In this document: piece after piece, positions 15,896 through 49,257 of the stretch
How the letters are laid out: each line of letters opens with the position of its first letter
Position numbering within the stretch: the stretch's first letter is position 1
NCBI GenBank assembly: GCA_028278025.1
Contig: JANQFE010000054.1
Location: 4,160-68,159 of the forward strand
Source: Thermodesulfobacteriota bacterium
Lineage (GTDB): Bacteria > Desulfobacterota > WTBG01 > CAIYCZ01 > CAIRTM01
Length of the DNA stretch: 64,000 nt
Reading direction: 5' to 3'
Program-made: the position numbers and the translations under genes
The notes under the pieces: generated by a model
The model's input: only the letters and a program-made list of their open reading frames with translations
Told to the model about the DNA's origin: nothing
Database searches by the model: none

Positions 15896-16984
15896 TCATG
15901 CATTTTGAGCAGAAACTGCAGATGCTGGAATTGTGACGAAAACTTCGGTTCCGGATCCCTTGATGCTCGATATATGAATATCACCGCCATGGAGTGCCAG
16001 GATATGCTTTACCATGGCAAGTCCCATGCCCGCACCCGACATTTTTGATGTGTAAAACGGGCGAACGATCTGAGACAACTCACTTTCCGAGATACCGATA
16101 CCTGAATCGGAAATGATTACATTAATTTTGTCTGCATGCGGTTGCACCGTAAGTGAAAGCACGCCTCCATTATCCATGGCTTCCACAGCATTCTCAATGA
16201 GATTGCAAAAAGTTTTTTTTAAATGCCCACTATCCCCATGTATTAGAGGTAACGCGGGGATAAAATTCTTTTGCACACTAATCTGTTTTGCTTTTATGGA
16301 TGACTGAAACTGCTGCAGGGCGCTTTCAAGCGCGTTGGTAATATCAACGTGTTCATCTAGGGAGACCACTATGGTTTTCAGCTTAATGATTTCATTAAGC
16401 ATTGTTTCAAGACGCTCAACTTCATGTGCGATGTGGTCGGCATACATTCTTAGATTGTCTTCAGCGGGAAGCCTTTCCCTTATTCTTCTGGCAAACCCCC
16501 CTATGGCCACGATAGGGTTGCGCACTTCATGCGCAACACTTTCAAGCATTTTTTCCAGTGCCTCCAGTTTCTCATCTTCAGACTTTTTCCGCTGATAAAG
16601 CCGTCGTTCAATCAACCCTTTTATACGCAGAGCAAATTCTTTTGCATTAAAAGGCTTGGTAATATAATCATCGGCTCCCTTTTCCAGGCCTGTGATTTTA
16701 TCCTCGACAAAGTCTTTTGATGTCAGCATTACAATGGGAATAAGGCGTGTATCTTCACTGCTTTTAAGTCTGCGGCATACTTCAAGACCATTAAGTTTGG
16801 GCATATTAACGTCAAGCACTATCAGGTCGGGGTTTGACTCAGATACTTTCCGGAGGGCTTCTTCTCCATCGTAGGCTTTTAAAATCTGATAGCCTGTTCC
16901 CTGCAGTATCTTTTCAATCAGGGATATAATGAAGAGTTCATCATCGACAACAAGAATTTTAGGTGTGCTTTGCACTATGTTCAC
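15896..16984 (-). CDS. Hybrid two-component protein: N-terminal receiver domain fused to HisKA-HATPase histidine kinase
   Basis: REC domain (VVDDE…DLIVLDVNMP…), H-box (AHEVRNPIVAI) and G-boxes (DSGIGI…GAGMGLA). Confidence 0.8.
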   Translation of the reverse strand: MNIVQSTPKILVVDDELFIISLIEKILQGTGYQILKAYDGEEALRKVSESNPDLIVLDVNMPKLNGLEVCRRLKSSEDTRLIPIVMLTSKDFVEDKITGLEKGADDYITKPFNAKEFALRIKGLIERRLYQRKKSEDEKLEALEKMLESVAHEVRNPIVAIGGFARRIRERLPAEDNLRMYADHIAHEVERLETMLNEIIKLKTIVVSLDEHVDITNALESALQQFQSSIKAKQISVQKNFIPALPLIHGDSGHLKKTFCNLIENAVEAMDNGGVLSLTVQPHADKINVIISDSGIGISESELSQIVRPFYTSKMSGAGMGLAMVKHILALHGGDIHISSIKGSGTEVFVTIPASAVSAQNA

Positions 16985-28257: not shown

Positions 28258-30441
28258 TCACAGGTGCATATTGTCACGAATCATGCGAACAAGAGTTGCA
28301 TTTTCACCGTGACCTGTCATGTTTGCCGTTATCTTACCCTTGATAGGACGACCCAGTAAATACAGGTCACCCATCATATCCAGAATTTTGTGCCGGACAA
28401 ATTCATCCGGAAACCTGAGGTCAGTATTAATAATTTTTTCATCATCTATCAAGATGAAATTATTTAACCGACCGCCATCGGCCAAGCCCTTTTGTGACAA
28501 CGCTTCGATATCTTTCACAAATCCAAATGTGCGTGCAGGTGCAATTTCATTTTTAAAAACTTCTTCATCATCCAAGACAAAGGTAAATTCCTGAACCCCT
28601 ATGGGCTTAGGATAACGCAGCGTATAATGAATTGAAAATTTTTCCGATGGTTCAACTACAACAAATTTACTTTTGGGGTTAACATCACCAACAGTATAAC
28701 GATCAGTAATAACAATTTCTTCCAGTTCCTCATCCTGTTCCTCGATGCCGGCATCTTCAATAATCTGGCAGAAGTCAACTGCAGATCCATCCATAATTGG
28801 TACTTCATTGTTGATTTTAATCATCAGATTAGTTATGCGGTAGGCATGCAGGGCCGCAAGAAAATGTTCTGTGGTGCGGGCAACAGTGTTTGTGCTTTGC
28901 AAACACGTTGCATAGTCGGTTGACACAACATAGTCTATATCAGCAGGAATAGTTTCACCACTGGAAATACTGCCAAAAATAATTCCGCTGTTTGGCGGCA
29001 GGGGTGTCAGCATAAGACCGGTCTTGTCCCCTGAATGCAGTCCGCGACCGCTCATGACCATGCTGCGCTTGAGGGTTCTTTGAAGCCGTTTCCTGGTCTT
29101 TTTCTCACGCCCGAAGACAATACCATATTCCTTAATATATTTCTTTAAATTTTTCTCCTTAATATATAATTTTTTAGATGTTTTTTTAACATCCTTATCA
29201 TTTTTTCTAAGATGATAAAGAATATAATTTTTTCTCCAAGCAGCTTCTGCTTCTTCAAAGCTTTTATACCGTTCATAGAACCGGGCCATGCTGGATTGCA
29301 TATCATCTCGCAATGAAAGCGGAATATCATGGGCGGAAATATTCTTGGTCGGGACTGAAACAACCAGTTTTTCAGCCAGATTTTTGACTTCCTTCACATT
29401 ACCAGGCCAATCATAATTTACCAGTATTTCAACAGCATCATCTTCCAGATGTTTCTCCCTGAACCCATACTCCTCACAAAATTGTGAAATAAAAAATGTA
29501 AGCAGTAAAGGTATATCAGACCTCCTATGCCGTAATGCGGGCACACGCAGAGTATGACTGAAACATTCCAGCAGCTCAGGCTGAAAAACGCCTGCCTCTA
29601 CAATATCATCCGGGTCTTTTATCGTTGCTGCAATAATTCGCATTCCGGATTCTTTATGTTTTGATGATGAAATACTTTTAGTAATTCGTTTTTGTAATTT
29701 GACCGGTAGTGCATCAACTGCCTCAAGAAACACCGTACAGTCTGAAGTGTTTTGCAAAATGCCCTGCTTTGCGGAAGCCTCTTCTTTGCTCTTGTGAGAG
29801 CCAAAAAGCTTCACTTCAAGTTCCTGAGGGCTATAAAACGAACAATTAATTTTTATAAAAGAGACCGCATCTTTTTTTGACTGGGCATGTATATGCCAAG
29901 CAATCAATTCTTTCCCGCTGCCAAGCTCGCCCTGGAGAAAGATATGCTCATTGTGTGTGGCCAACTGTCCAATCTCTTCCTTTATAACCAAAACAGCAGG
30001 TGTTTCCCCTGTCAAGTCAGGCACAATCTCTTCGTCTACCGGCTTCTCAGGCTGCACAGCAGTTGTAGAAGCTTTTTGTTTCTCGGTAACTTTTTTGATG
30101 ATATTAATTACCGTATCCAGAGAAAATGGTTTTTCCAGGAAATCAAATGCTCCCTGCTTTACAGCCTGGACTGCGGTGTTGACAGTACCATGCCCTGTCA
30201 TCATAACTACATCAATATCGGAATCAAAATCCTTGATTGCCGTGAGTGTTGTCATTCCATCCATTTCCGGAAGCCATATGTCAAGGAAAACAATGTCGAC
30301 CGGTTGGAATTTGATTATCTCCATTGCTTTCATTCCATCCGAAGCAGTCAAGACAATGTACCCCTCATCCTCAAGACTGCCGCGCAATGAATTCACAATC
30401 GTATTTTCATCATCAACCAGTAAGATTACCGGGGTCTTCAT
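28258..30441 (-). CDS. lpxC: Fusion protein: NtrX-like response regulator (REC + degenerate sigma54 AAA+ + Fis HTH) fused to complete LpxC, UDP-3-O-acyl-N-acetylglucosamine deacetylase
   Basis: The N-terminus is a REC domain (LLVDDE…DIVFLDIWLPEMDG). This is followed by a sigma54-type AAA+ domain with Walker A GELGSGKE but without a GAFTGA loop, and then a Fis-like HTH. The C-terminal 274 aa (about 28261..29082) carry all LpxC hallmarks: QRTLKR, GLHSG, TEHFLAAL, PIMDGSA, ARTFGF..DIE.L…GLA.GG, FVRHKILDMMGD and TGHGEN. A single continuous frame of 727 aa runs through all of these. Confidence 0.8.
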   Translation of the reverse strand: MKTPVILLVDDENTIVNSLRGSLEDEGYIVLTASDGMKAMEIIKFQPVDIVFLDIWLPEMDGMTTLTAIKDFDSDIDVVMMTGHGTVNTAVQAVKQGAFDFLEKPFSLDTVINIIKKVTEKQKASTTAVQPEKPVDEEIVPDLTGETPAVLVIKEEIGQLATHNEHIFLQGELGSGKELIAWHIHAQSKKDAVSFIKINCSFYSPQELEVKLFGSHKSKEEASAKQGILQNTSDCTVFLEAVDALPVKLQKRITKSISSSKHKESGMRIIAATIKDPDDIVEAGVFQPELLECFSHTLRVPALRHRRSDIPLLLTFFISQFCEEYGFREKHLEDDAVEILVNYDWPGNVKEVKNLAEKLVVSVPTKNISAHDIPLSLRDDMQSSMARFYERYKSFEEAEAAWRKNYILYHLRKNDKDVKKTSKKLYIKEKNLKKYIKEYGIVFGREKKTRKRLQRTLKRSMVMSGRGLHSGDKTGLMLTPLPPNSGIIFGSISSGETIPADIDYVVSTDYATCLQSTNTVARTTEHFLAALHAYRITNLMIKINNEVPIMDGSAVDFCQIIEDAGIEEQDEELEEIVITDRYTVGDVNPKSKFVVVEPSEKFSIHYTLRYPKPIGVQEFTFVLDDEEVFKNEIAPARTFGFVKDIEALSQKGLADGGRLNNFILIDDEKIINTDLRFPDEFVRHKILDMMGDLYLLGRPIKGKITANMTGHGENATLVRMIRDNMHL

Positions 30442-30533
30442 TAAAAAATCCTTTCTTTTACGACTGTTCGGTTCCCTGCCCCTGCTGCCGGTTTTCTTAG
30501 CTACTTTTTTAACTTCGATTTCTGTTTTTGACT

Positions 30534-32774
30534 TTATATATTTACTTTCTGGCGTACCGGCAGTTCAATAACAAAACAGGTTCCCTTGGGCTTATTATCA
30601 CGTACGCGGATGTATCCGCTATGGTCTGCAATAATCGTATTTACTATTGCCAGCCCCAGTCCGGTGCCGCCCTTTTTAGTGGAAAAATTAGGCTCAAAAA
30701 GTTTAGACTTTAGTTGGGGTTGTATGCCGTAGCCGGTATCCGCAATTTCAATAGTAACAACCTCCTGGGCATCATTGTAGTGGGTACGGATTGTTACCGT
30801 GCCACCATTTTCCATGGAGTCAACTGCATTGTCAAGCAGATTAATCAGGGCTCTCTTTATTTGATCTCTATCAAGGTTAAAGCGCTTTACGGCCTCACCC
30901 TTTATAAATTTAAACGTTATATCTTTATGTGCTTCTTTGTACAAAAGCAGGGTCTCATCTATGATCTCATGCAAATCATTGGGAAGGGGTTTTGTGGCAG
31001 GCATTCGTGCAAAGTTTGAAAATTCATTAACCAGGGTTTTCAGTTCATCAACCTGGTTGATAATAGTCCATGTACATTCATCAAAAATTTTAGCCTCATG
31101 ATTAATCTGGGACTGAAATTTTTTTCTCAGGCGCTGTGCAGATAGTTTAATTGGCGTAAGCGGGTTTTTAACCTCGTGGGCAATTTTACTTGCAACTTCC
31201 TTCCAAGCGTAGGCCCTTTGGGCCTGCTGAATTTGAGTGAGGTCTTCAGCCACAATTACCAGCCCCAAATAATTTTGTTCCTTGTCAAACAGCATGTTGG
31301 AACGTATGTAGAGAAATATTGTCTTTTGTGGAAAAGCAAGTGTGATCTGCTTTTCAGCTGCTCTGAGACAAAATTTATTTATCTCATCTATAAAATCACA
31401 CAGGGGTTGCAGCGGTTCGGAGGCAAAAACTTCTGCATAGGATTTAGCAAGTGCCCTTTCCATCTGAACATCAAGCATTTTCTCAGCAGACTTGTTAAAG
31501 GCCGTAATTATGCCTTCTTTATTAATGGAAATAACCACAGATGCAACATTATCCAGTAAAATTTCCATATATAGTCTGCGGTGATCAAGCTCCCCGATTG
31601 TATCGCGCAAATCATTCGTGGTTGATTCGACCTGCTCCTTGCTCACTTTTAAATCACAGGTCATCTGGTTAAAGGCATTGACCAGACTGCCGATCTCATC
31701 ATCAGTTGCAGGTTCAATCTGAAAATCAAGGTTGCCCTGGGAAACTTGATGGGTCGCATCAGCAAGCGAGCTTATCGGTACAGTAATAACCTTAGACAAA
31801 TGGAATCCAAACCACGTTGCAGAAAATATTATTAATAGTGTCACTACAGACAGCAGAATCATATAAATAAGCTTTATAGGATTTTTGTAAATTTTAAGCT
31901 GTTTGTACTCCTGAAATGCCCGGGAGATTGTATCCATTTTGGAAACAAGGCTCTGTGGCACATAATAATTAACAACTACTACTCCAACCACGTCTTTACG
32001 CTTCCAGGTAGAAAGCACGGGTACGACACCTCGTATAATGTCACCTTCGCCGGCTGGTTGTATACGGGTAACCTCTTTGCCCTCCAGAGCCTGCTGCACT
32101 AATGAGGACTCTGCGCTGATAAAATCGCTGTCAGGTATATTAGGATTCATTATTTTAAGAAGTTCTTCACGCTGAGATGAAAACACCTCCACTACTCCCA
32201 GATTATATTCCACCTGCTTTTCCGTTACATACTCTTCAAGATTGTCCAGATTTTTCTCATTAAGCAGTTTTTTATCTGTAATTTTACCGCTTATCTGACG
32301 TGCATAATAAAGGGCATTAGCAGCAGAACTTTTATAGTATACCTCAGCCACATTGAGTGACTCTTCAAGAGAACTTTCAACTTTAAAACTGAACCAATTC
32401 TCTATGGTATTTGTTATGAAACCGATGGAGACCCAAAAAAGCAGCAGGGTTGGTATAAGCGACAGGCCAACAAAGGCCATGACCAGTTTAGTTCTGAGCT
32501 TTGAGCCGAGAATGCCTTTCCTGCGTTCAAAAAAAAGTTTAACAACATTGCGCACAACCAGAAATATAAGCAGCAAAAGCAGCATCGCATTAACATTTAT
32601 AAGACTGAAAACCAGGATGTTTTGAGGCAGTAAGGCTTCGCCTTTCAGTCCGCTCAGATATACAAGCAGTGATGTCAGTACGACCACCAGAAGGATAACA
32701 ACTATTATTATAGTTCTTTCACGTCTGCGCCTTTTCTTTTCCGCTTTCTGCTGTTTGTGTAATTCTTCGTTCAT
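30534..32774 (-). CDS. ntrY: NtrY-like sensor histidine kinase (TM-HAMP-PAS-HisKA-HATPase)
   Basis: N-terminal TM segments, HAMP and PAS domains, the H-box AHEVKNPLTPIKLSAQRL (NtrY signature) and the HATPase G-boxes. Confidence 0.8.
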   Translation of the reverse strand: MNEELHKQQKAEKKRRRRERTIIIVVILLVVVLTSLLVYLSGLKGEALLPQNILVFSLINVNAMLLLLLIFLVVRNVVKLFFERRKGILGSKLRTKLVMAFVGLSLIPTLLLFWVSIGFITNTIENWFSFKVESSLEESLNVAEVYYKSSAANALYYARQISGKITDKKLLNEKNLDNLEEYVTEKQVEYNLGVVEVFSSQREELLKIMNPNIPDSDFISAESSLVQQALEGKEVTRIQPAGEGDIIRGVVPVLSTWKRKDVVGVVVVNYYVPQSLVSKMDTISRAFQEYKQLKIYKNPIKLIYMILLSVVTLLIIFSATWFGFHLSKVITVPISSLADATHQVSQGNLDFQIEPATDDEIGSLVNAFNQMTCDLKVSKEQVESTTNDLRDTIGELDHRRLYMEILLDNVASVVISINKEGIITAFNKSAEKMLDVQMERALAKSYAEVFASEPLQPLCDFIDEINKFCLRAAEKQITLAFPQKTIFLYIRSNMLFDKEQNYLGLVIVAEDLTQIQQAQRAYAWKEVASKIAHEVKNPLTPIKLSAQRLRKKFQSQINHEAKIFDECTWTIINQVDELKTLVNEFSNFARMPATKPLPNDLHEIIDETLLLYKEAHKDITFKFIKGEAVKRFNLDRDQIKRALINLLDNAVDSMENGGTVTIRTHYNDAQEVVTIEIADTGYGIQPQLKSKLFEPNFSTKKGGTGLGLAIVNTIIADHSGYIRVRDNKPKGTCFVIELPVRQKVNI

Positions 32775-33199: not shown

Positions 33200-33334
33200 T
33201 TGAAACGGACATTTCAACCAAGCACATTGAAACGAAAACGCACACATGGTTTCTTGCATCGCATGAGCACGAAAGCAGGGCAGAATATTATCAAAAGAAG
33301 AAGAAGGAAGGGCCGCAAAACACTCAGTGCATAA
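33200..33334 (+). CDS. rpmH: 50S ribosomal protein L34
   Basis: Hand translation from the TTG after AAGGAG gives (M)[43 protein letters not shown]. It is not in the ORF track because it is under 60 aa. Confidence 0.85.
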
Positions 33335-33382
33335 TAATATACTATACCCACATCGGATTATAATCAATTTTGCATATGCCCC

Positions 33383-33754
33383 TTGAATATGAGCCCCTTC
33401 TCTTTTAAAAAAAAGGAAAGAGTTCGAAAACGTACTGATTTTATAACAATATATAATAAAGGAGTTAAGCAAGAGACGCAGCACTTTAAAATTGCAACGT
33501 TACCTAACAACTTACAATGGAGCCGTTTAGGGTTAACGGTTAGTAAAAAAGTCGGGAAGGCAGTGCAAAGAAATTATGTAAAACGCCGGCTGAGGGAGTA
33601 TTTTAGACTACACAAAGCATATTTACCTATGTCGTGTGATATAGTTATAACTTCTAAATCAGGTGCACAAAAACTTACGTATGTTGAAATGTGCCAAGAG
33701 CTTAACGCAATCTTGTGTCCTGATTTACAGATGCCGGACAGAACTAAAGGGTAA
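33383..33754 (+). CDS. rnpA: RNase P protein component
   Basis: Basic approximately 120-aa protein immediately after rpmH, with a …KRRLRE… RNR-like motif. Confidence 0.8.
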   Translation: MNMSPFSFKKKERVRKRTDFITIYNKGVKQETQHFKIATLPNNLQWSRLGLTVSKKVGKAVQRNYVKRRLREYFRLHKAYLPMSCDIVITSKSGAQKLTYVEMCQELNAILCPDLQMPDRTKG

Positions 33755-33772
33755 TTCTTTGCTGGTTTTATC

Positions 33773-33988
33773 ATGGATACACTTAGCAAATTGTTTATTT
33801 ATCCCATAAAATTTTATCAATTTTTTATCTCTCCCCTGCTTGGTTCAAACTGCCGTTTTATACCGACGTGCTCCACGTACGCACTCAGTGCTTTTGAAAA
33901 GTACGGTCCCTTGAAGGCACTAATGATGGTGGGAAAACGAATCCTGAAATGCCATCCTTTTCATCCTGGCGGAATAGACCCTGCCTAA
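33773..33988 (+). CDS. yidD: Membrane protein insertion efficiency factor YidD
   Basis: FYQ..ISP…C.F.PTCS.YA…HPGG.D matches the YidD signature. Confidence 0.8.
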
Positions 33989-34091
33989 AAAAATCGTGTA
34001 CCCGTAAGAGTGTGTAGGTAACATAAACAACCTGTAATTGCACAGGTGGGCTGCTTGCGTTTTACTGCTTCTATTTTAAGGAATACACTGC

Positions 34092-35867
34092 ATGGACAAT
34101 GAAAAAAGAGTTTTGCTTGCAATAATACTTTCAATAGCAGTCCTTTTTTTGTACCAATCGTTTCTGGCACCCCCGGCTCCCCAAAAACCGCCTGAGAAAG
34201 GACCGGCAGAGTACCAGCCGCCGCAGGAAATGCCCAAGCCTGCAATCACACCCAAGGCTGCCCAAAGAAAACTTTCGATTACATCAATGCCGCAGACTCC
34301 TGAGGCTGTTAGCGACACTACACCAAAGCAGGTTACGGTAAAGACACAAATGTTTTCTGCGGTGTTTTCCTCCCGGGAAGCTGCTTTGCAAAGCTTCAGA
34401 CTGCACAACTACAAAGAAAAACTTGCAAGCCCGGCCATTATACGGTTTGTTAATAAACTCATTTCTGCAGACAGCTCTGATGAATCCACTGATAATGAAC
34501 AGATGTTTAAGGAGCTTGTCCACATACAGCAGCCCCAGCCTCTTCCGCTGCTGGCGTCATTTTTGAATACAAACGGCAACCCTGCGGCACATACATCCTG
34601 GCATACGGATAAAGACCAGCTTTTGCTGGAAGATACCCGTCCTGAAGGTACTCTTACATTTACGCGTACCGACCCTCAGGGGCTTACCCTACAAAAAGAA
34701 TTTGTATTCAATGATGGTGAGTATAAAATTGACTTTAACTTTACAGTGTCTAATGCATCGGAAACACAGCTTGAAGGCAATCCGTTTATTGAATGGACGG
34801 CACCTTATCCTGCAGGAAACGGCGGTGGTTTTTTTAGTATGAACACCCAAAATATTTCCCGTTTTGCTTATTTTATCAAGAATAAAGTTAAAAAAAAGGA
34901 ACTGCAAAAAATCGAGAAAAACATCACCCTTGAAGGTGATATCCTCTGGACCGCTATTGAGCAAAAATACTTTACTTCTGCCATTATATCCAATGGCCAA
35001 AAACCCGTTCAGGTGCTTCTGGGGAAAGCCGGTGAACAGACATTTGCATATCAGCTTGTCTACCCTTTTGTCTCGCTCCAGCCCGGCGAGCAGAAGACCT
35101 ATTCATTATCTCTCTATCTGGGGCCCAGGGATATTGACATTTTGAAGGCCCAGGGTGCTCGACTGGAAAAAACAATTGATTTTGGTGTTTTTGATGTTTT
35201 AGCAAAACCTCTGCTGCTGACCGTCAAATTTTTCTACTCTTTTCTCGGCAATTACGGCTTGGCAATAATCCTTTTAACTATTATCATAAAAATCCTTTTC
35301 TGGCCGCTTTCTCATAAAAGCATGCAGTCGATGAAGGATATGCAAAAAATTCAGCCGGAGCTTGCCAAGCTGAAAGAAAAATATAAAAACAACAAGGAAG
35401 AGTTTGCACGCCAGCAGATGGCAATGTATAAAAAATATAAAGTTAATCCCCTCGGCGGCTGTCTCCCTATGCTCCTGCAAATACCTGTTTTTATTGCTCT
35501 GTATCGTGCACTGATGGACTCTATTGAACTGCGCCATGCAAATTTTATATCTTTTTGGATCAATGACCTATCTGCAAAAGATCCCACGTATATTGCACCG
35601 ATCATTATGGGTTTATCTATGCTGCTGCAGCAAAAGATGACTCCTTCCACTGCTGATCCCGCCCAGGCAAAAATGATGATGTTTATGCCCATTATTTTTA
35701 CCGTAATGTTTCTGAATTTTCCTTCCGGTCTGGTTATATACTGGCTGGTTAATAATGTCCTTTCAATTGCACAGCAATTGTACATAAATAAAAAATCTCA
35801 TCAGTCAGGAGGTAGCGAATGCAATCAATCGAAGTCGAAGCAAAAAGTCTCGAAGAAGCAATCTTAA
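34092..35867 (+). CDS. yidC: Membrane protein insertase YidC
   Basis: An N-terminal TM segment, a large periplasmic domain and the conserved C-terminal 5-TM core (…GLAIILLTIIIKILFWPL…, …GGCLPMLLQIPVFIALY…). Confidence 0.9.
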   Translation: MDNEKRVLLAIILSIAVLFLYQSFLAPPAPQKPPEKGPAEYQPPQEMPKPAITPKAAQRKLSITSMPQTPEAVSDTTPKQVTVKTQMFSAVFSSREAALQSFRLHNYKEKLASPAIIRFVNKLISADSSDESTDNEQMFKELVHIQQPQPLPLLASFLNTNGNPAAHTSWHTDKDQLLLEDTRPEGTLTFTRTDPQGLTLQKEFVFNDGEYKIDFNFTVSNASETQLEGNPFIEWTAPYPAGNGGGFFSMNTQNISRFAYFIKNKVKKKELQKIEKNITLEGDILWTAIEQKYFTSAIISNGQKPVQVLLGKAGEQTFAYQLVYPFVSLQPGEQKTYSLSLYLGPRDIDILKAQGARLEKTIDFGVFDVLAKPLLLTVKFFYSFLGNYGLAIILLTIIIKILFWPLSHKSMQSMKDMQKIQPELAKLKEKYKNNKEEFARQQMAMYKKYKVNPLGGCLPMLLQIPVFIALYRALMDSIELRHANFISFWINDLSAKDPTYIAPIIMGLSMLLQQKMTPSTADPAQAKMMMFMPIIFTVMFLNFPSGLVIYWLVNNVLSIAQQLYINKKSHQSGGSECNQSKSKQKVSKKQS

Positions 35868-36463
35868 TTGCCTGTGAAAAACTGCACACATCAAAGGATA
35901 AAATGCACGTTGAAGTGCTTGAGGAACCATCCGGTAAGCTCATGTCTCTTTTTTCGAACAAAAAGGCCCGCATACGAGCCAGCATGATGGCAGTATCACA
36001 ACAATCCGACAGTGATGCCATAGATACGTTAAAAGAGATTTTGGAAACAATTGTGTCCGGCATATACCCTAAAGCTTCCGTAAAGATAAAGAAAGAATAT
36101 GACGAAACAGTTCTGAACATCATTGGAGACGGCAGCGGCATCTTTATTGGCAAAAAGGGCCAGACTCTTGAAGCCTTTCAATATCTTATTAATAAAATAC
36201 GGCTCAGCAAATTTAAAAACGCGCCCCATATTACCGTTGACTCTGAATCATACCGTTCACGACATATAGCTTCTCTTGTAAGCCTTGCAAAACGGTTGAG
36301 CGAAAAGGCTAAAAAACGCGGTGGACCGGTAACAACAAATCCGCTCACTCCCGGTGACAGGAGAATTATTCACATGACGTTAAAAAAAGATTCAGAACTG
36401 ACAACCTGGAGCAAGGGCGATGGGAATTTGAAGAAAGTTATTATTGCACCACGTCAATCATAA
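35819..36463 (+). CDS. jag: Jag/KhpB RNA-binding protein (KH + R3H domains)
   Basis: Jag N-terminal domain, a KH-like segment and a C-terminal R3H domain. Conserved position after yidC. A terminator hairpin follows at 36543..36577. Confidence 0.8.
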   Translation: MQSIEVEAKSLEEAILIACEKLHTSKDKMHVEVLEEPSGKLMSLFSNKKARIRASMMAVSQQSDSDAIDTLKEILETIVSGIYPKASVKIKKEYDETVLNIIGDGSGIFIGKKGQTLEAFQYLINKIRLSKFKNAPHITVDSESYRSRHIASLVSLAKRLSEKAKKRGGPVTTNPLTPGDRRIIHMTLKKDSELTTWSKGDGNLKKVIIAPRQS

Positions 36464-36542
36464 TAGATGCTTTTGATACAGTTGTACCCGTAAGGTTAAA
36501 AAGTAAAAAAACTAAAAGTCGACAAGATCCAACAATGACATA

Positions 36543-36577
36543 AAAGGCATGGCCAAAGTAAGGCCTTGCCTTTTTTT
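36543..36577 (+). terminator. Rho-independent terminator after jag
   Basis: Hairpin aaGGCAtGGCCaaagtaaGGCCtTGCCtt followed by TTTTTTT. Confidence 0.55.
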
Positions 36578-36609
36578 ACCTGCAACTTCACTGATAGATA
36601 CGAGAAAAC

Positions 36610-38007
36610 ATGCCTGAAAACAGAATATATGCTCAAGATACCATTGCTGCCATTGCCACTCCCGTCGGCAGGGGAGGTATCGGTATCATTAAAATCAGCG
36701 GTCCTGATGCGATTAAAATTATTCAGCCTTTTTTTCGTTCCGGTTCTTTTGATCCTATCAGGCCAAACACACACCGCATCTATTACGGCAAAGTCATAGA
36801 TCCTGTAGACGGCTGCGAGCTTGATGAAGTTCTGGTATCATATATGCAGGGTCCCACATCCTATACAGGGGAAGATGTGGTTGAAATAAACTGCCACAGC
36901 GGGCTGGTTGTCCTGCAGCAGCTGCTTAATCTGGTAATTAACAGCGGGGCGCGGCCGGCCGAACCTGGTGAATTTACCAAACGCGCTTTTTTAAATGGAC
37001 GCATTGATCTTACTCAGGCCGAAGCTGTTGTCGATGTAATTGAGGCCCAGACAGACACGGGCCTTAAGCTCGCTGCCCGTCAAATGAAAGGAGCCCTTAC
37101 TAAAAAAGCCGCCGAGGTTCAGCAAAAGCTGCTCGAGGTAACCGCTTTTCTTGAAGCTTCGATTGACTTCCCCGAGGATGATCTGGACGACTTGAATCCG
37201 CATACTATGGTACAAAAAGTCCAACATGCCGCTGAAACAATAAAAAATCTTATTGCTACATTTGATGAAGGCCGTCTGTACCGTGCGGGTATACAGGTAG
37301 TCATCGTAGGCAAACCCAATGTCGGCAAATCAAGCCTGCTTAATGCTTTAGTGGGTGATACAAGGGCAATTGTTACAGCGATTCCCGGCACAACACGGGA
37401 TGTAATACATGAAACCATAAGCATTCAGGGGATACCGGTCAAACTGCTCGATACTGCAGGTCTCCATCAGGGTAATGACGAAATCGAAAAAATAGGCATA
37501 GACATAACACTTTCAAAAATACCTGAAGCTGATCTGGTGCTGCTTGTGCTCGACGGCAGCAGTAATCTTGACGAGCGTGACTGGTCGATCATCGAAACAG
37601 TCAGGGATACATCTGCAATTATCATAGTAAATAAGTCCGACCTTCCTCAGGTGCTTTCAGTGCAGAAACTGCCTAATGAAGCCTACCATAAAAACATTGT
37701 CAAGGTTTCCGCCCTGTATCACCACGGTATTGATGAGCTGAAAAAAACCATCACACACACTATTATACATGAAAAACATGATATAACCTCAAACATCCTT
37801 ATATCAAATGCCCGCCATAAAAATGCACTTGAAAAAACCCTTGCATCTTTGCAGATCGTTTTGAAAGGATTTCAAGAGCAGCTTGCTGCTGAACTTGTTG
37901 CCGTTGACCTCCAGGCCGCCCTCAGTTACCTTGGAGAACTTACCGGTGAAACAACCACTGATGATATTCTCGATATGATTTTTAGCCGTTTCTGTATTGG
38001 AAAGTAA
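36610..38007 (+). CDS. mnmE: tRNA modification GTPase MnmE
   Basis: DTIAAIATP..GGIGIIKISG at the N-terminus, G1-G4 GTPase motifs (GKPNVGKSS, DTAG, NKSD) and the C-terminal CIGK. Confidence 0.9.
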   Translation: MPENRIYAQDTIAAIATPVGRGGIGIIKISGPDAIKIIQPFFRSGSFDPIRPNTHRIYYGKVIDPVDGCELDEVLVSYMQGPTSYTGEDVVEINCHSGLVVLQQLLNLVINSGARPAEPGEFTKRAFLNGRIDLTQAEAVVDVIEAQTDTGLKLAARQMKGALTKKAAEVQQKLLEVTAFLEASIDFPEDDLDDLNPHTMVQKVQHAAETIKNLIATFDEGRLYRAGIQVVIVGKPNVGKSSLLNALVGDTRAIVTAIPGTTRDVIHETISIQGIPVKLLDTAGLHQGNDEIEKIGIDITLSKIPEADLVLLVLDGSSNLDERDWSIIETVRDTSAIIIVNKSDLPQVLSVQKLPNEAYHKNIVKVSALYHHGIDELKKTITHTIIHEKHDITSNILISNARHKNALEKTLASLQIVLKGFQEQLAAELVAVDLQAALSYLGELTGETTTDDILDMIFSRFCIGK

Positions 38008-38155: not shown

Positions 38156-39013
38156 ATGAAGGTATCGGTGGTTATCCCTGCCCATAACGAAAGCCACTCA
38201 ATTGGGAGGGTTATTACATCCGTGCGTAACAAAGTTCCGGGATGCGAAATTTTTGTGGTTAATGATGCTTCTACCGACGACACAGTAAAAATTGCCCAGG
38301 AGGCAGGCGCCTGGGTTTTTAGCCATCCTTACAATATGGGAAACGGTGCGGCAGTTAAAACCGGCATACGCATGGCAACAGGTGATAAGATCGTTTTAAT
38401 AGATGGAGATGGACAACATAATCCTGAGGATATCCCCCGTTTGTTAGAGGCTTCCAAGAATTATGATATGGTGGTTGGTGCGCGCAGCCCCCGAACCCAG
38501 GCAAACATACTCAGAAGATGTGCTAATTTCATGTACAATATCCTGGCCAGTTATGTTACCAGAAGAAAAATTAAGGACTTGACCTCAGGGTTTCGGGTGG
38601 TAGATCGTAAAACAGTTTTAAATTACCTAAGCCTGCTTCCAAATACTTTTTCCTATCCCACCACCATTACATTATCGTATTTGCGCAGCGGTAGATCCGT
38701 ATGTTATATCCCCATACATGCGGGCAAAAGACGTGGAAAAAGTAAAATACGGCTCCTGCGTGATGGTGTCCGCTTTTTCTTAATTATCATTAAAATATCC
38801 ACACTTTTTTCACCGCTGCTGATCTTTTTACCGGTGAGTTTTACTTCCTTTATGATTGGAATGCTGTACTATGCTTACACCTACCTTGCCCAGCACCGTT
38901 TTACTAATATGTCGGCACTTTTATTTATCAGCTCTGTAATAATCTTTATGATGGGACTTATAAGTGAACAGATAACACAGCTGCGCTATGATCGCCTGGA
39001 TAACGGCGGCTAA
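38156..39013 (+). CDS. GT2-family polyprenyl-phosphate glycosyltransferase (DPM1/ArnC/GtrB-like) with C-terminal TM helices
   Basis: VVIPAHNE, VNDASTD and DGDGQH (DxD) motifs, followed by C-terminal hydrophobic segments. Confidence 0.8.
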   Translation: MKVSVVIPAHNESHSIGRVITSVRNKVPGCEIFVVNDASTDDTVKIAQEAGAWVFSHPYNMGNGAAVKTGIRMATGDKIVLIDGDGQHNPEDIPRLLEASKNYDMVVGARSPRTQANILRRCANFMYNILASYVTRRKIKDLTSGFRVVDRKTVLNYLSLLPNTFSYPTTITLSYLRSGRSVCYIPIHAGKRRGKSKIRLLRDGVRFFLIIIKISTLFSPLLIFLPVSFTSFMIGMLYYAYTYLAQHRFTNMSALLFISSVIIFMMGLISEQITQLRYDRLDNGG

Positions 39014-39026
39014 CAGGAACCTGTAT

Positions 39027-41264
39027 ATGGCACGTAAAAAAAAGCAAAGGGCCAGCAGTAAAAAAAAAACAGCTGCACCGGCAGCTACCCTTACAAAAGG
39101 CAAAGATTCAAAGATAATCAATATTTCAAAAAAAGGGGCGGTTTCGGCTGAAAACTTTTTTAAAAGCCTGTCAAAATATAGCCGCTGGATAGAGATTTGC
39201 GCGCTTGTGGCAATTATTGTCACCGGCGTTCTTTTTCGTCTGGAAGACCTGAGCCAGTGGCAGAACCGTGAACAGAAAGCCTTTTTTGATAATCAGCCTC
39301 TGCACACTACATTTGATGCGTGGTTTTATCTAAGCCTTGCTAAAGATATTGCCGAAGACACCTATTATCCTATTGACGAAAAGCGCGGTGTCCCTGACAG
39401 TCCTCCCCGCCCTTCCCCGCCACCGCTTATTTCTTGCCTGACTGCTGTAATTGCAAAAACAACATCATTTTCTATGAGCTGGATTGGTGCCATACTGCCT
39501 CCTCTGCTTGGTCCTCTGCTTGCTATTCCGCTGTTTTTGCTCGGACGCTACTATGGCGGTCCTATTATGGGACTCAGCGCTGCGCTGATGGCGCTTCTCT
39601 ATCCATTCTATGTATACCGGAGTAATGTGGGCAGGTTCGATACAGACTGTATGAATGTTACCTGGGCTGCATGTGCTGCGTATCTTTTTTTAAGGTTCGG
39701 CATTCTGGAAACAAAAAAAAGATACATTTATTTGCTCGGCGGGTTTATCGTGTATGCGCTGTTTTTATGGTGGTGGGATCAGACTCCTGCCGTAGTGGGC
39801 GCCATTACGTTTCTTCCTCTGGCAGTAGCTCTGGCATTATTCTATCGCCCGCCCAAAAAAGAAGCCTTCCTGCTGTATGGCGGTCTTGGTGCCGGAGTGG
39901 TCATACTTCTTGCAGTTAACGGTATTGCTATGCCGGTAAAAATCTTACAGTCAATCTGGCACCAGTATCTGTATATTACCAAGGATGCCTCCGGAGATTT
40001 CCCCAACATCGGCCTTACCATAAGCGAGCAGTCCCGGCCGTCTTTTGACCTGGTATTAGGCTATACCACAAAGAACATCCTTGCCTTTGTTTTTAGTGTT
40101 GCCGGAATTATTTTGCTTGTGTGGAAACGTTTTAAAGATGCCCTTTTTCTGCTTTCTTTGATTATTTTATCTATTATGGCGGTCACCACTGCAAACCGTT
40201 TCCTGATTTTCCTGATTCCCATCCTGGCGCTCGGCGCGGGCTTTTCCCTGTCGATGCTCTGGGGCCTTCGTAAGCAATTCACAGCGCTTACAGTTGTTTG
40301 CCCCGTGCTGATACTGTGTATGTGCATCCCGCTCTATAAGGCCAATTCAGATTACGTGCAGTGGCCTAAAGAATCCGCGCCTATCATTGCCGGCATGGAC
40401 ACTGCCAAAAAGAAAACACCTTCAGACGCTGTAATCTGGGCCTGGTGGGACCATGGGTATGCCCTTACTTACTATGCCCGGCGTGCCACCATCAATGACG
40501 GTTCCATTCACAGCGGTGAACGAACCGTATATACGGGAATCCCGCTTGCTACAGACAGTTTTCAGCTTGCTGCAAACTTTATGCAATTCTACGTCATCCG
40601 CGGCATGAAGGGCATCAAGAAATTACACAATGCAACTGATGATAATCCCGGCAGCGGGTTAACCCTGCTTAAGAAGATCCTCCGCGCCGGCCCTGATAAA
40701 GGCCGGGCACTTATAGCAGAGGCTAACTTGAAGCCGGTTGGAAACTGGAAAACTGTTGATGACTGGCTGCGATTCTTTTATCCTCCCGAAAAGCGCCCGG
40801 TTTACCTGTTCGTTGACAACCTTTTAACTAAGACCAGCTACTGGTGGCACTGGTTCGGCACCTGGGACATGCAAAAGCAGGAAGGCCTTCACCCCGTGTA
40901 CCAGCCTTTCTACAACGTTAAGAAAAAAGGTGGCATGATAAGAGGCACCGGCGGGCTGCAAATAAATATGGAGACAGGTGATCTTTACACAAAAAACAAT
41001 CGCATCAAAATATCTAATTTGTTAATCCGCAAGAAAAAGGATATTAAAGAACAAAATTACGGCACTAAAAAAGGTTATAGATTTGAGATGCTTGAGCAGG
41101 CTCGCTACGGTGCCCTGATGGATGCACGAATTTCAGAATCAGTTTTTAATAAACTGTTTATCCGCCATATCTTTCCGAAAAAATATTTCCGCCCCGTAGA
41201 AATCAACTCCCCGTTTTATCAGCTCTGGGAAGTCCGGGGTGATTCCCTCCCAGATGCTGCCTGA
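39027..41264 (+). CDS. AglB/PglB/STT3-family oligosaccharyltransferase homologue
   Basis: About 13 predicted TM helices and then a soluble domain containing WAWWDHGY, a variant of the WWDYG catalytic motif. The start was placed at MARKKKQ to avoid overlapping the GT2 gene. Confidence 0.6.
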   Translation: MARKKKQRASSKKKTAAPAATLTKGKDSKIINISKKGAVSAENFFKSLSKYSRWIEICALVAIIVTGVLFRLEDLSQWQNREQKAFFDNQPLHTTFDAWFYLSLAKDIAEDTYYPIDEKRGVPDSPPRPSPPPLISCLTAVIAKTTSFSMSWIGAILPPLLGPLLAIPLFLLGRYYGGPIMGLSAALMALLYPFYVYRSNVGRFDTDCMNVTWAACAAYLFLRFGILETKKRYIYLLGGFIVYALFLWWWDQTPAVVGAITFLPLAVALALFYRPPKKEAFLLYGGLGAGVVILLAVNGIAMPVKILQSIWHQYLYITKDASGDFPNIGLTISEQSRPSFDLVLGYTTKNILAFVFSVAGIILLVWKRFKDALFLLSLIILSIMAVTTANRFLIFLIPILALGAGFSLSMLWGLRKQFTALTVVCPVLILCMCIPLYKANSDYVQWPKESAPIIAGMDTAKKKTPSDAVIWAWWDHGYALTYYARRATINDGSIHSGERTVYTGIPLATDSFQLAANFMQFYVIRGMKGIKKLHNATDDNPGSGLTLLKKILRAGPDKGRALIAEANLKPVGNWKTVDDWLRFFYPPEKRPVYLFVDNLLTKTSYWWHWFGTWDMQKQEGLHPVYQPFYNVKKKGGMIRGTGGLQINMETGDLYTKNNRIKISNLLIRKKKDIKEQNYGTKKGYRFEMLEQARYGALMDARISESVFNKLFIRHIFPKKYFRPVEINSPFYQLWEVRGDSLPDAA

Positions 41265-43061: not shown

Positions 43062-44822
43062 TCATTGTCTATCCGTGACAGACACAGCAAATTCCAAAAC
43101 ATGCTTTGCAAGAATTTCACCAACCCGGGGGTCATCATTTGCCTGCTGAGCGATCTCCCAGGTACCCGTGTACTGTTCCTGAACAGGCATGTGCGAATTA
43201 AGCGAATCCGATGCCGGATCATAGCCAAGATGTCCGTAATTGCTCACATCAAAAGCAAGCGAAGGATCAAGATTACTGATAGCTTCGTCAATCGGAGTCT
43301 GGCGGGGGGGAGGATAGGGTCTTCCGTCAGCACAGCCGCCCATTTCAAAGCAGCACTCAGCACCGTCGCAGTCAGTAGTGACATAGGTCCCCCAGTAATC
43401 GGCAAAAGGATCCCCATAGTCAGGGAATCTTGCGTAATCAAAAACACCCCATTTCGCCCATGTTCTCATGCCAATCTCTTTGCCGATCTGGTTGAAGAGC
43501 TCAACGCCGTGGAGAGCGTTTTCAGTCAGTAACTGCGGCCAACCAATAATAATATGTTTGATACCACGATCCTTTAAATATTCCAGTCCATCCCAGTAGC
43601 GGTATCCCCAGGGATGGCCCGACAGCGGCTCATCTGCCTCATGCAGGTAGCATGCAGCAAAAGATTCACCCCTCATGTTGCGAGTATATTCCTCGATGTC
43701 GTTCTCAGGATTCACCTCTTTTTCTCCACCAAAGGAGCCGATTATGTTGTCGGGGTCAAAACCGGGATGCCGTTCAAGCAGAAGTGTTTTAATATTTTCA
43801 TTAAACAGATTAGTATCATTCATTTTAGGGTCAAAATAACGTCTACTTTTCCTAAATAGGCCGTGGTTAAAAAATAAAATACCGGTTTGATTGTCAGGGA
43901 CTGTTTCAGACAGGACAGCTTCGATTCCTTCCACATGAAGCAAGGCATAGTCCATATCTTCAATCAGCGGATTCTGGCCTGCTGCCACATCAGCATGCTG
44001 GTCTGTGGTTGGCTCGCCATACCAGGGAGTCCAGTCCTCAGGCTCGCTCGGATATGAGCGTTCCATAAGACCGGTATAATCATTAACCCAGGTGAGTTCA
44101 ACATCCTTCAGGTGCTTGGCATTCCATTGTTCCAGCACGAGCTTGCACATCTGGACAACATCATAGCCCTTGTAAAAACGAACTCCCCCGACCGCGGTGT
44201 CGATCACGATAATATGCTGTACACCTTTTTTAAGCAGCCGCTCTACCGGACCGTCCACGTTGTATCGTTGCGGGTCACAGTCTTCCCAGGGGCCATCATC
44301 CAGCCCTTCGCCGCAGTAGTTAATATGCACCCCTTTTTCATCGGGCAGATTATAAATATATCTTGGATAAGCATAGTGGTCAGGATAGCCTGCCGGGCTC
44401 CAACCTGCCCAGTCAACCTCAAAAGTTATACCGTGGGTGTTTTTGTCCAGTTCGGTCTTCATATCCTGTAGTTGCGTCATCGTAAAGTCCATGAACGGCT
44501 CAACCCCTCCTACCCGGTCATAGGTAAAACGAAACCGCTCGGCATACTCGGCCACAAAAGGGTTCAATTCTGGGGTTACAAGCACAGGCCACATTGCCGG
44601 ATTTTTTATAACAAATTTATGCACATGATCATACGGGTCATACGATGCCATCTGGACTGCCACGTCCCACAGGTACTGAAGTTTGTAGGTATCGGCTGTC
44701 CCGTGGACAACATAGATGACACCAATTTTTGTTTTTGTCACCGGAGCACAGGTCAGCATAGCAGCTGAAAGACTCAAGACTAAAATGCATAGCATGATTT
44801 TGTTTCGCACATGTGACCTCAT
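43062..44822 (-). CDS. Secreted protein of unknown function, member A of a three-gene paralogous family (possible class-II chelatase-like fold)
   Basis: Signal peptide, then KIGVIYVVHGTADTY and a later ILFFNHGL. Both are hydrophobic-strand-HG elements reminiscent of CbiK/CbiX chelatase half-domains. The same N-terminal pattern recurs in 45722..48364 and 49538..52108. Confidence 0.6.
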   Translation of the reverse strand: MRSHVRNKIMLCILVLSLSAAMLTCAPVTKTKIGVIYVVHGTADTYKLQYLWDVAVQMASYDPYDHVHKFVIKNPAMWPVLVTPELNPFVAEYAERFRFTYDRVGGVEPFMDFTMTQLQDMKTELDKNTHGITFEVDWAGWSPAGYPDHYAYPRYIYNLPDEKGVHINYCGEGLDDGPWEDCDPQRYNVDGPVERLLKKGVQHIIVIDTAVGGVRFYKGYDVVQMCKLVLEQWNAKHLKDVELTWVNDYTGLMERSYPSEPEDWTPWYGEPTTDQHADVAAGQNPLIEDMDYALLHVEGIEAVLSETVPDNQTGILFFNHGLFRKSRRYFDPKMNDTNLFNENIKTLLLERHPGFDPDNIIGSFGGEKEVNPENDIEEYTRNMRGESFAACYLHEADEPLSGHPWGYRYWDGLEYLKDRGIKHIIIGWPQLLTENALHGVELFNQIGKEIGMRTWAKWGVFDYARFPDYGDPFADYWGTYVTTDCDGAECCFEMGGCADGRPYPPPRQTPIDEAISNLDPSLAFDVSNYGHLGYDPASDSLNSHMPVQEQYTGTWEIAQQANDDPRVGEILAKHVLEFAVSVTDRQ

Positions 44823-48629: not shown

Positions 48630-49247
48630 TTACTTCTGAATAAATTCTCTAATTAAGCTCTTAAGGGCCCTTAGCGCGTCACCAGCAGTATAGTCGATAG
48701 CTCTATTCTGATACTGACCGTAGTACAGCCCGTCCAAAACGGCCCGGATGCTTCCCCCCAGAATGGCTCTCAGGAGGCTAGGTTTGTATATCGAATTAAA
48801 TAGACCGGCTTTTTGACCAGCGAGAATGACGCCATCAATGGTTTGCATCAAAGTGGCGTTCTCGTTGTAGATTTTACGGCGCTTGCCAAGTAGTTTTTTG
48901 TTCTTAACCACTGAAATCTGGGGCCAGGCTTCACTGAGCACTTTCATTACGGGCAGTTTATCGTCTTGATTACAAAGGGATAAGAAATTGTCCACAATAC
49001 CCAACAAGGCCTCCACCGGATTAAGTGTTTTTTTGATCACCTCCTGGCTGCTTTGGTTCAACTTTTGGAAAAACCCCAGCACGATGGAGAGAATGATGTC
49101 ATCTTTGTTGAGAAAATAGGAGTATATCAGTCCGGTTGAAAAGCCCGAAGCTTTCACAATGCCGGTGATGGTGGCATTGTGATAACCGTTCTCGGCGAAT
49201 ACCCGGGTTGCGGCGATGAGTACTTTCTGTTTTTTTTCTTTATTCAT
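48630..49247 (-). CDS. TetR/AcrR-family transcriptional regulator
   Basis: The N-terminal HTH (AATRVFAENGYHNATITGIVKASGFSTGLIYSYF) is the classic TetR_N domain. It is flanked by palindromic operators. Confidence 0.85.
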   Translation of the reverse strand: MNKEKKQKVLIAATRVFAENGYHNATITGIVKASGFSTGLIYSYFLNKDDIILSIVLGFFQKLNQSSQEVIKKTLNPVEALLGIVDNFLSLCNQDDKLPVMKVLSEAWPQISVVKNKKLLGKRRKIYNENATLMQTIDGVILAGQKAGLFNSIYKPSLLRAILGGSIRAVLDGLYYGQYQNRAIDYTAGDALRALKSLIREFIQK

Positions 49248-49257
49248 GACCAATATA

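Follow-up and report, generated by a model that had tools for sequence, protein, structure and literature searches.

An LpxC deacetylase fused in frame to an NtrX-like response regulator in Thermodesulfobacteriota and related bacteria

Introduction

LpxC is the zinc deacetylase that commits UDP-3-O-acyl-GlcNAc to lipid A, a component of the outer membrane. It is a major antibiotic target, excess and shortage of the enzyme are both harmful, and what is understood of its regulation comes mostly from a few Proteobacteria, which control it by proteolysis. In a 64,000-nucleotide stretch of Thermodesulfobacteriota contig JANQFE010000054.1 (the window, meaning the whole stretch of DNA that was analyzed), a single gene at 28258..30441 (minus strand) appears to join a two-component response regulator to a complete LpxC. 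This locus raises the question of whether the fusion is a genuine protein and, if so, what a phosphorylatable receiver does on this enzyme. LpxC as the output of a response regulator would be a different solution to its control, namely direct phosphorylation control of the enzyme. A sequence-only reading of the window had described the fusion and proposed control of this kind. The fusion finding is correct and is more general than that reading had it, and our results suggest that bacteria with the fusion control lipid A synthesis directly by phosphorylation.

Results

One reading frame encodes a response regulator and a full-length LpxC

The gene is read without interruption through 727 codons, and the interval includes both its ATG start and its stop codon. 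The order of domains in the encoded protein is receiver (REC), sigma54-type AAA+ module, Fis-like helix-turn-helix (HTH), basic linker and full-length LpxC. The receiver (residues 6-115; 30097..30426) matches Pfam Response_reg with 107 bits (cut-off 30.2), and the codon of its phospho-acceptor Asp54 lies at 30280..30282. It is followed by the AAA+ core (residues 144-291; 29569..30012), which matches Sigma54_activat with 84 bits and is decayed as described below, and by the AAA+ lid (residues 304-384; 29290..29532), which matches AAA_lid_14 with 73 bits. The HTH-like segment (residues 395-441; 29119..29259) was placed by alignment to the NtrX model and to the structure of Brucella abortus NtrX (PDB 5m7n). 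A stop-free basic linker of 12 residues (442-453, VFGREKKTRKRL; 29083..29118) then leads into the LpxC domain (residues 454-727; 28261..29082). All of these segments are on the minus strand. GC and GC at third codon positions (GC3) are alike in both halves, 0.404/0.380 in the N-terminal half and 0.427/0.398 in the LpxC half.

Assignment of the C-terminal part to LpxC is based on PF03331, on TIGR00325 and on alignment to E. coli LpxC (PDB 4mdt). The Pfam scan for LpxC in this part, chosen beforehand as the test capable of refuting the fusion, detected the domain at residues 454-721, where it aligns with all but the last two of the 268 profile positions (1-266) and reaches 285.5 bits (cut-off 27). 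TIGR00325, the NCBIfam equivalog for lpxC, gives 271.2 bits, well over its cut-off of 187.25. E-values from 1e-85 to 1e-31 rule out chance. The alignment to E. coli LpxC opens at E. coli residue 4 with 'QRTLKR', and every motif quoted in the sequence-only reading, for LpxC and for the regulator part, is present. In E. coli numbering, the zinc ligands of LpxC are H79, H238 and D242 and the catalytic residues are E78, H265, T191, K239 and D246; E78/H79, T191/F192, H238/K239/D242/D246 and H265 are all matched in the fused domain. The fused LpxC ends near E. coli residue 280, without the E. coli-type C-terminal extension. For the N-terminal half, the best PDB match is B. abortus NtrX (5m7n, E 5.5e-62), which reaches the end of the HTH. 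Open reading frame (ORF) and Pfam analyses thus bear out a single 727-aa frame with an in-frame junction and no intervening stop.

The fusion is genuine and widespread

We searched 5.8 billion clustered proteins for the same architecture in related genomes, as the sequence-only reading had suggested, and obtained at least 120 clusters in which all four Pfam domains recur. Full-length members of these clusters are 715-749 aa long, identities are 49-73%, and the clusters originate from NCBI, JGI, ENA and Logan assemblies. The exact protein also occurs in an independent Logan assembly, where its coding sequence shows no difference. A further search, exhaustive over 1.84 billion representatives at 50% identity, has about 45 fused forms in its top 150, as counted from lengths and matched stretches. 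A scan with the junction segment recovered 13 metagenome loci that span the junction. All 27 aligned long fusions share the junction motif Q454-x-T456, and no internal start is conserved among them. A lost stop codon or assembly error is excluded, because more than 120 independent clusters have the same architecture. Thus, we conclude that the fusion is a genuine single protein, and that its architecture characterizes an old, widespread clade that is common in relatives of sulfate reducers.

Where the fused clusters are named at all, the names are automatic, either 'UDP-3-O-acyl-GlcNAc deacetylase [Thermodesulfobacteriota / Desulfobacterota / Deltaproteobacteria bacterium]' or 'NtrX'. The current names 'LpxC' and 'NtrX' each conceal half of the fused protein. 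In full-text searches of the literature, we came across no paper that describes a fusion of LpxC to a receiver or to NtrX. The view of the sequence-only reading that the architecture is undescribed therefore holds for the literature, as far as we found, but the sequences themselves are common in databases under these automatic names.

Receiver and enzyme are conserved, the modules between them have decayed

Conservation was counted in the alignment of 27 long fusions and in 22 short forms that carry REC and LpxC (see below). In the receiver, D10, D11, D54, T82, F101 and K104 are invariant in 27/27 long forms, and the equivalents of the phospho-site residues are invariant in 22/22 short forms. 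In the LpxC domain, E525, H526, T638, F639, H684, K685, D688, D692 and H711 are invariant in all 27 long forms; the zinc and catalytic residues are likewise invariant in the short forms, making 49 fused sequences. Based on mean pairwise identity among the long forms, REC (0.69) and LpxC (0.70) are followed by the AAA+ lid (0.56), the HTH segment (0.48) and the AAA+ core (0.36), the least conserved domain. The two linkers have values of 0.21-0.22, with 0.21 for the basic linker at 442-453. This pattern points to REC and LpxC as the parts under strong constraint.

Within the AAA+ module, Walker A K177 and sensor-II R306 are retained in 27/27 long forms. The Walker B Asp is present in 13/27, the Walker B Glu in 0/27 (Ala in 16, Ser in 11), and neither Arg-finger position of the 'FRxDLyyRL' motif is Arg in any of the 27. 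The window protein has VFLEAV and FQPELLECF where 5m7n has LYLDEV and FREDLFHRL. The GAFTGA loop that contacts sigma54 is not present in the window protein or in the aligned long fusions; the corresponding region reads 'GSHKSKEEASAKQG' in the window protein and is variable across the long fusions. Judged by these motifs, the AAA+ module appears to be a remnant unable to hydrolyse ATP canonically or to contact sigma54.

The window also holds a canonical sigma54 activator gene at 52408..53826 (minus strand; REC, Sigma54_activat, lid and HTH_8), beside a PAS histidine kinase gene at 53874..55619 (minus strand). Its GC content is 0.494, as against about 0.41 for the operon of the kinase and fusion genes. 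As a control, this activator scores 225.6 bits for Sigma54_activat and 48.9 bits for HTH_8. The possibility that the fusion protein is itself a functional sigma54 activator was rejected based on the motif counts and on this comparison.

HTH_8 (PF02954) has no match on the fusion protein at E<=0.01. The HTH-like segment nevertheless aligns with the HTH that ends both the NtrX model and 5m7n, and AlphaFold2 (AF2) models it as three helices at 395-413, 418-425 and 429-438. Brucella NtrX and an unfused relative (L010) have an 'ERS' motif here, whose Arg would be expected to contact DNA in a Fis-type HTH. At the position matching this Arg, the long fusions have Glu in 15/27 and Arg in 1/27. The Fis-like HTH of the sequence-only reading is therefore supported by alignment and by the modelled helices, but it falls below the Pfam threshold and its contact Arg is usually Glu.

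The fusion resembles NtrX in its order of REC, AAA+ without the GAFTGA loop and C-terminal Fis-type HTH, and in its NtrY-type partner kinase. Absence of the loop, which the sequence-only reading had compared to NtrX, was confirmed against Brucella NtrX. NtrX is also the best NCBIfam match, with fusion residues 6-441 aligned to positions 4-452 of 452 in NF051870. Unlike the fusion, NtrX has no enzyme domain, and the fusion is more decayed, because Brucella NtrX retains 'LDEV' in Walker B and an intact 'FREDLFHRL'. Strict membership of NtrX was rejected, as the match of 273.7 bits compares with an equivalog cut-off of 600. Thus the label 'NtrX-type' stands in the sense of best-scoring family, but the score is far below the cut-off and the Walker B Glu and both Arg fingers are lost.

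AF2 models of long and short forms predict folded domains joined by disordered tethers. The low-confidence tethers are at 126-138, 381-390 and 444-449 in the long form (predicted local distance difference test, pLDDT, <50 at 444-449) and at 127-157 in the short form.

Unfused relatives, shorter forms and a single origin

Relatives were taken from the matches listed in a scan of species-representative genomes (loci numbered L) and from tblastn searches with the separate halves. Unfused lpxC, ntrY and ntrX genes share a strand in an isolate (L010) and a metagenome-assembled genome (MAG; L025) of Deltaproteobacteria, a Desulfobacula MAG (L077) and a Magnetococcales MAG (L043). The NtrX-like proteins that adjoin lpxC-ntrY in L010, L025 and L077 retain the Walker B 'LFLDEIGD' and 'FR(K/Q)DL..RLN'. 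Their sigma54 loops are intact or slightly altered: GSFTGA in L010, GAFEGA in L077 and GAFEKA in L025. Since these nearest unfused relatives carry GAFTGA-like loops, loss of the loop in the fusion may be convergent with its loss in NtrX.

Fused relatives occur in several forms. The long fusion as in the window, ntrY followed by REC-AAA-HTH-LpxC, is found in L001-L003. The Desulfomonile fusions (L004, L005) are 702-704 aa long and without the HTH (REC-AAA-LpxC), and the search of representatives added two further long forms lacking it (P0252, P0256). P0260 (491 aa) and P0263 (505 aa) have lost the AAA+ module and are REC-HTH-LpxC proteins. Both proteins retain a canonical-looking Fis-type HTH (e.g. 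'AAEALRMKEHSLRRKLGALGI'), and the HTH may retain function in some lineages. Short REC-LpxC proteins of 422-447 aa are encoded in Ca. Binataceae (L009), in a Syntrophobacter MAG (L007) and in other MAGs (L006, L008). ORF and Pfam analyses find only two domains in these short forms, REC and LpxC, and in a profile search with the short form 120/120 top clusters are REC and LpxC only.

Neighbor-joining trees of the LpxC domain recover a single fused clade. A tree of 9 fused and 72 free sequences does so in 100/100 bootstraps, a larger one of 56 fused and 72 free sequences in 30/30. These sequence comparisons argue for a single origin of fused LpxC. Long and short forms are interleaved in the LpxC tree, and parsimony gives two state changes (bootstrap range 1-3). 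The simplest history begins with one fusion in the long form, after which AAA+ and/or HTH were deleted at least once and probably several times. A single fusion in the long form is indicated because the AAA+ module is homologous in the two long-form lineages and has decayed in a similar way. The lpxC gene that lies 5' of ntrY in the unfused relatives is absent from the fused loci, so lpxC appears to have been relocated rather than duplicated. Among the matches listed, which include at least 8 fused loci, none is in the same assembly as a free lpxC locus.

Nine positions are near-invariant in the 56 fused LpxC domains and rare in the 72 free ones. They correspond to window residues 462, 475, 542, 610, 615, 617, 664, 673 and 709 and, in E. 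coli numbering, to the changes Q12V, T25G, E95K, F161Y, I166G, S168Q, V217L, E226T and S263T. These positions may form a surface on which the receiver docks, or may change the properties of the enzyme.

An NtrY-type kinase is encoded upstream

Upstream in transcription, separated from the fusion gene by a 92-nt spacer (30442..30533, minus strand), lies the gene of a 746-aa sensor histidine kinase (30534..32774, minus strand). As the sequence-only reading had it, the kinase is NtrY-like: its membrane/periplasmic region matches NtrY_N with 32.1 bits (cut-off 23.2), and HAMP, PAS_9, HisKA and HATPase_c exceed their cut-offs. The further label 'envelope-sensing' is an assumption. Neither the spacer nor the sequence that follows the fusion gene holds a terminator-like site, and kinase and fusion genes are probably co-transcribed.

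The pairing recurs in other genomes. In the clade of the window, NtrY is encoded directly upstream in 9/10 metagenome loci with enough upstream sequence, and the metagenome loci are 70-84% identical to the window in LpxC, 63-77% in NtrY and 48-59% in the regulator half. NtrY orthologues with 39-77% identity are directly upstream of the fused genes in L002, L007, L009 and L083. In the unfused loci, the NtrY orthologue is placed between lpxC and ntrX.

Sites resembling the sigma54 promoter (TGGCAC-N5-TTGCW, one mismatch) occur upstream of lpxC in 2/4 unfused clusters. The window operon and 10 fused loci have none in front of them; these counts are small and the background is about 1 site per 13 kb per strand. 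The -24/-12-like sites before free lpxC are at 6512 in L010 (TGGCAAGACTATTGCA) and at 6045 in L043 (TGGCGCGATAATTGCT), each with one mismatch. We treat this distribution as suggestive only and do not rely on it.

The genes downstream of the fusion encode a CobC-like phosphatase (162.3 bits, cut-off 162.9), a trehalose-phosphatase and a ManC-like protein. They look like unrelated housekeeping genes and were rejected as parts of the system. At L083, a His_Phos_1 gene comes after a CobO-like gene.

Discussion

Proposed origin and mechanism

We consider it fairly likely that a regulator once controlling lpxC became fused to LpxC and that phosphorylation of Asp54 now modulates the enzyme directly. 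The ancestor would have been a sigma54-type activator partnered by NtrY, encoded beside lpxC and regulating it. Fusion of the regulator gene to lpxC would have turned LpxC into the output domain of a response regulator, after which the sigma54 loop, the residues for ATP hydrolysis and the arginine fingers would have been lost, and some lineages would then have deleted the AAA+ module, the HTH or both. In the present protein, the membrane kinase encoded upstream would phosphorylate Asp54, and the resulting change in the receiver would alter the activity of the attached LpxC, so that flux into lipid A would be set after translation. A CheB-like form of control seems the most likely, in which the unphosphorylated receiver would inhibit the enzyme across a flexible tether and phosphorylation would relieve the inhibition. 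That phosphorylation means more LpxC activity is a guess; it is the more parsimonious direction because the ancestor, if it was as supposed here, activated lpxC. We infer phosphotransfer, the effect on catalysis and the direction of that effect. The proposal of direct phosphorylation control made in the sequence-only reading is thus still an inference, and it is strengthened by the relatives with REC and LpxC only, as lineages without a DNA-binding domain still retain the phospho-switch residues.

More tentatively, the fused protein could be the sole LpxC of these bacteria, an essential enzyme switched directly by two-component phosphorylation. The long form would then be an evolutionary intermediate, a sigma54 factor fused to the product of its own target, which would have shed its transcription functions in steps and turned into an allosteric regulator in cis, with REC-LpxC as the end point.

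Several observations weigh against modulation of LpxC by the receiver. AF2 shows no reliable packing of REC against LpxC: the long form has a predicted template-modeling score (pTM) of 0.41, and the five models of the short form, of which the best reaches 0.69, are inconsistent with one another. Among the more distant fused loci, about half have no kinase gene next to them, both long forms (L004, L005, L082) and short ones (L006, L008, L084). The HTH persists in the clade of the window and in some forms lacking the AAA+ module, and may have a DNA-binding role. Such a role is central to the alternative of tethering without allostery, in which fusion secures co-expression and the N-terminal part is still a DNA-binding regulator that, for example, autoregulates the operon of ntrY and the fusion gene. 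LpxC would then be constitutively active, or controlled via stability or localisation, although autoregulation would also regulate LpxC because the fused lpxC sits in the regulator's own operon. Retention of the HTH-like segment as a predicted three-helix bundle, even in the REC-HTH-LpxC proteins, agrees with this alternative, as does the lack of a confidently predicted inter-domain interface. We regard it as quite improbable, given that many members are without any DNA-binding domain yet have an invariant phospho-acceptor set, that the Desulfomonile forms are without the HTH, and that just 1/27 has the expected DNA-contact Arg, whereas 15/27 have Glu there. A receiver as conserved as the enzyme would also be hard to explain if it had no output in REC-LpxC proteins.

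The divergence of the enzyme itself is a further point against receiver control of an ordinary LpxC. The fused clade stands on a long stem, with 38-40% identity to free LpxC compared with 52% among free sequences, and it may have an altered role. An ordinary free lpxC could lie elsewhere in these genomes, with the fused copy diverged toward another substrate or serving as a ligand-sensing module for lipid A precursor levels. Together with the long stem, the clade-specific positions, including F161Y, I166G and S263T, which are rare in free LpxC, speak for such a paralogue. We nevertheless consider it unlikely: the LpxC domain is above the equivalog cut-off (271 vs 187), the zinc and catalytic residues invariant in 49 fused sequences would be unneeded by a pure sensor domain, and the missing lpxC 5' of ntrY fits relocation over duplication. 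The chance that adjacent ntrX and lpxC genes were merged by a sequencing error deleting a stop codon is negligible. The same in-frame junction is present in more than 120 clusters from four sources (NCBI, JGI, ENA and Logan) and in 13 metagenome loci. An independent assembly agrees with the coding sequence letter for letter, and Q454-x-T456 is invariant with no conserved internal start. Unfused neighbors do exist elsewhere, but in another order, lpxC-ntrY-ntrX.

Comparison with known systems

CheB consists of a receiver, a flexible linker and a methylesterase, with the receiver gating the catalytic domain. CheB, like PleD, WspR and RpfG, is a response regulator with enzymatic output, and it is the closest functional analogy for REC-LpxC; the predicted disordered linkers of about 30 residues in the REC-LpxC forms are likened to its flexible tether. 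CheB differs in catalytic fold and pathway, and the window protein has decayed AAA+ and HTH modules between REC and enzyme. By this analogy, gating by a tethered receiver would be the closest model for fused LpxC.

The sole other LpxC fusion that we found in the literature and in domain libraries is LpxC/FabZ (PRK13188), which also places LpxC within a larger polypeptide. There, FabZ is C-terminal to LpxC, two metabolic steps are joined and there is no signalling domain. The window protein matches PRK13188 over the LpxC part only.

The best-known controls of LpxC are post-translational, namely FtsH/LapB/YejM proteolysis in E. coli and Lon in some alphaproteobacteria (PMC12444477). Degradation of E. 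coli LpxC uses a C-terminal signal (Fuhrer et al. 2006, as cited in PMC3333781). Fused LpxC is without such a degradation tail, and phosphorylation within the same polypeptide would act instead. We found no description in the literature of direct phosphorylation control of LpxC, and a 2025 review lists only transcriptional links between LpxC and two-component systems (PMC12444477).

NtrYX has been linked to envelope composition in alphaproteobacteria (PMC7240162, PMC12444477). Its loss raises lpxC mRNA about 9-fold in Rhodobacter sphaeroides, and effects on lpxC mRNA or lipopolysaccharide levels, probably indirect in R. sphaeroides, are also reported for Caulobacter (PMC7240162, PMC12444477). 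In Desulfovibrio vulgaris, lpxC is the only mapped target of the sigma54-dependent regulator DVU2934, and was tested as such since it carries the nearest predicted sigma54 promoter (PMC3333781). In Syntrophobacter fumaroxidans, lpxC is directly upstream of the operon of the orthologous regulator (PMC3333781), an order that matches the unfused lpxC-ntrY-ntrX loci. Compared by description, DVU2931/DVU2934 and the fusion are alike in belonging to former Deltaproteobacteria and in a dedicated two-component link to lpxC. They differ in that the D. vulgaris control is transcriptional and its proteins are separate.

If LpxC is switched as proposed, the living intermediates document a transcription factor turning into an allosteric regulator of the product of its former target. 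The REC-LpxC family also points to envelope lipid synthesis as what NtrY-type kinases ultimately control. A REC-LpxC protein of 420-450 aa with its adjacent kinase would be a simple and tractable experimental system.

Other features of the window

Divergent from the operon of ntrY and the fusion gene, a classical origin-proximal cluster extends over about 33200..38007 (plus strand), with an rpmH-like ORF (TTG start near 33200, read by eye), rnpA, yidD, yidC, jag and mnmE. Many bacteria have dnaA at the position occupied here by the operon. An MlaA lipoprotein gene, involved in outer-membrane lipid asymmetry (8765..9736, plus strand; 203.9 bits), and an MMPL/RND-type transporter gene (10474..12990, minus strand) agree with the presence of an outer membrane, which lipid A synthesis presupposes. 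At 15896..16984 (minus strand), a 362-aa protein has REC followed by HisKA and HATPase_c, an unusual soluble hybrid kinase.

Neither tRNA genes nor Rfam families (gathering threshold) were found on either strand of the 64 kb window. Three large ORFs at 43062..44822, 45722..48364 and 49538..52108 (all minus strand; 586, 880 and 856 aa) match nothing in Pfam at E<=1e-5, and are interspersed with a PNPOx-like gene and a TetR-family regulator gene (48630..49253). A family-2 glycosyltransferase gene (38156..39013, plus strand) overlaps the gene of a 758-aa STT3/PglB-type oligosaccharyltransferase (38988..41264, plus strand), which scores 79 bits for Pfam STT3 and 103.6 for NCBIfam PglB (cut-off 1300). 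The pair could serve N-linked glycosylation of proteins in a Desulfobacterota-like organism. Near the fusion gene of L082, too, there is an STT3/PMT_2 gene.

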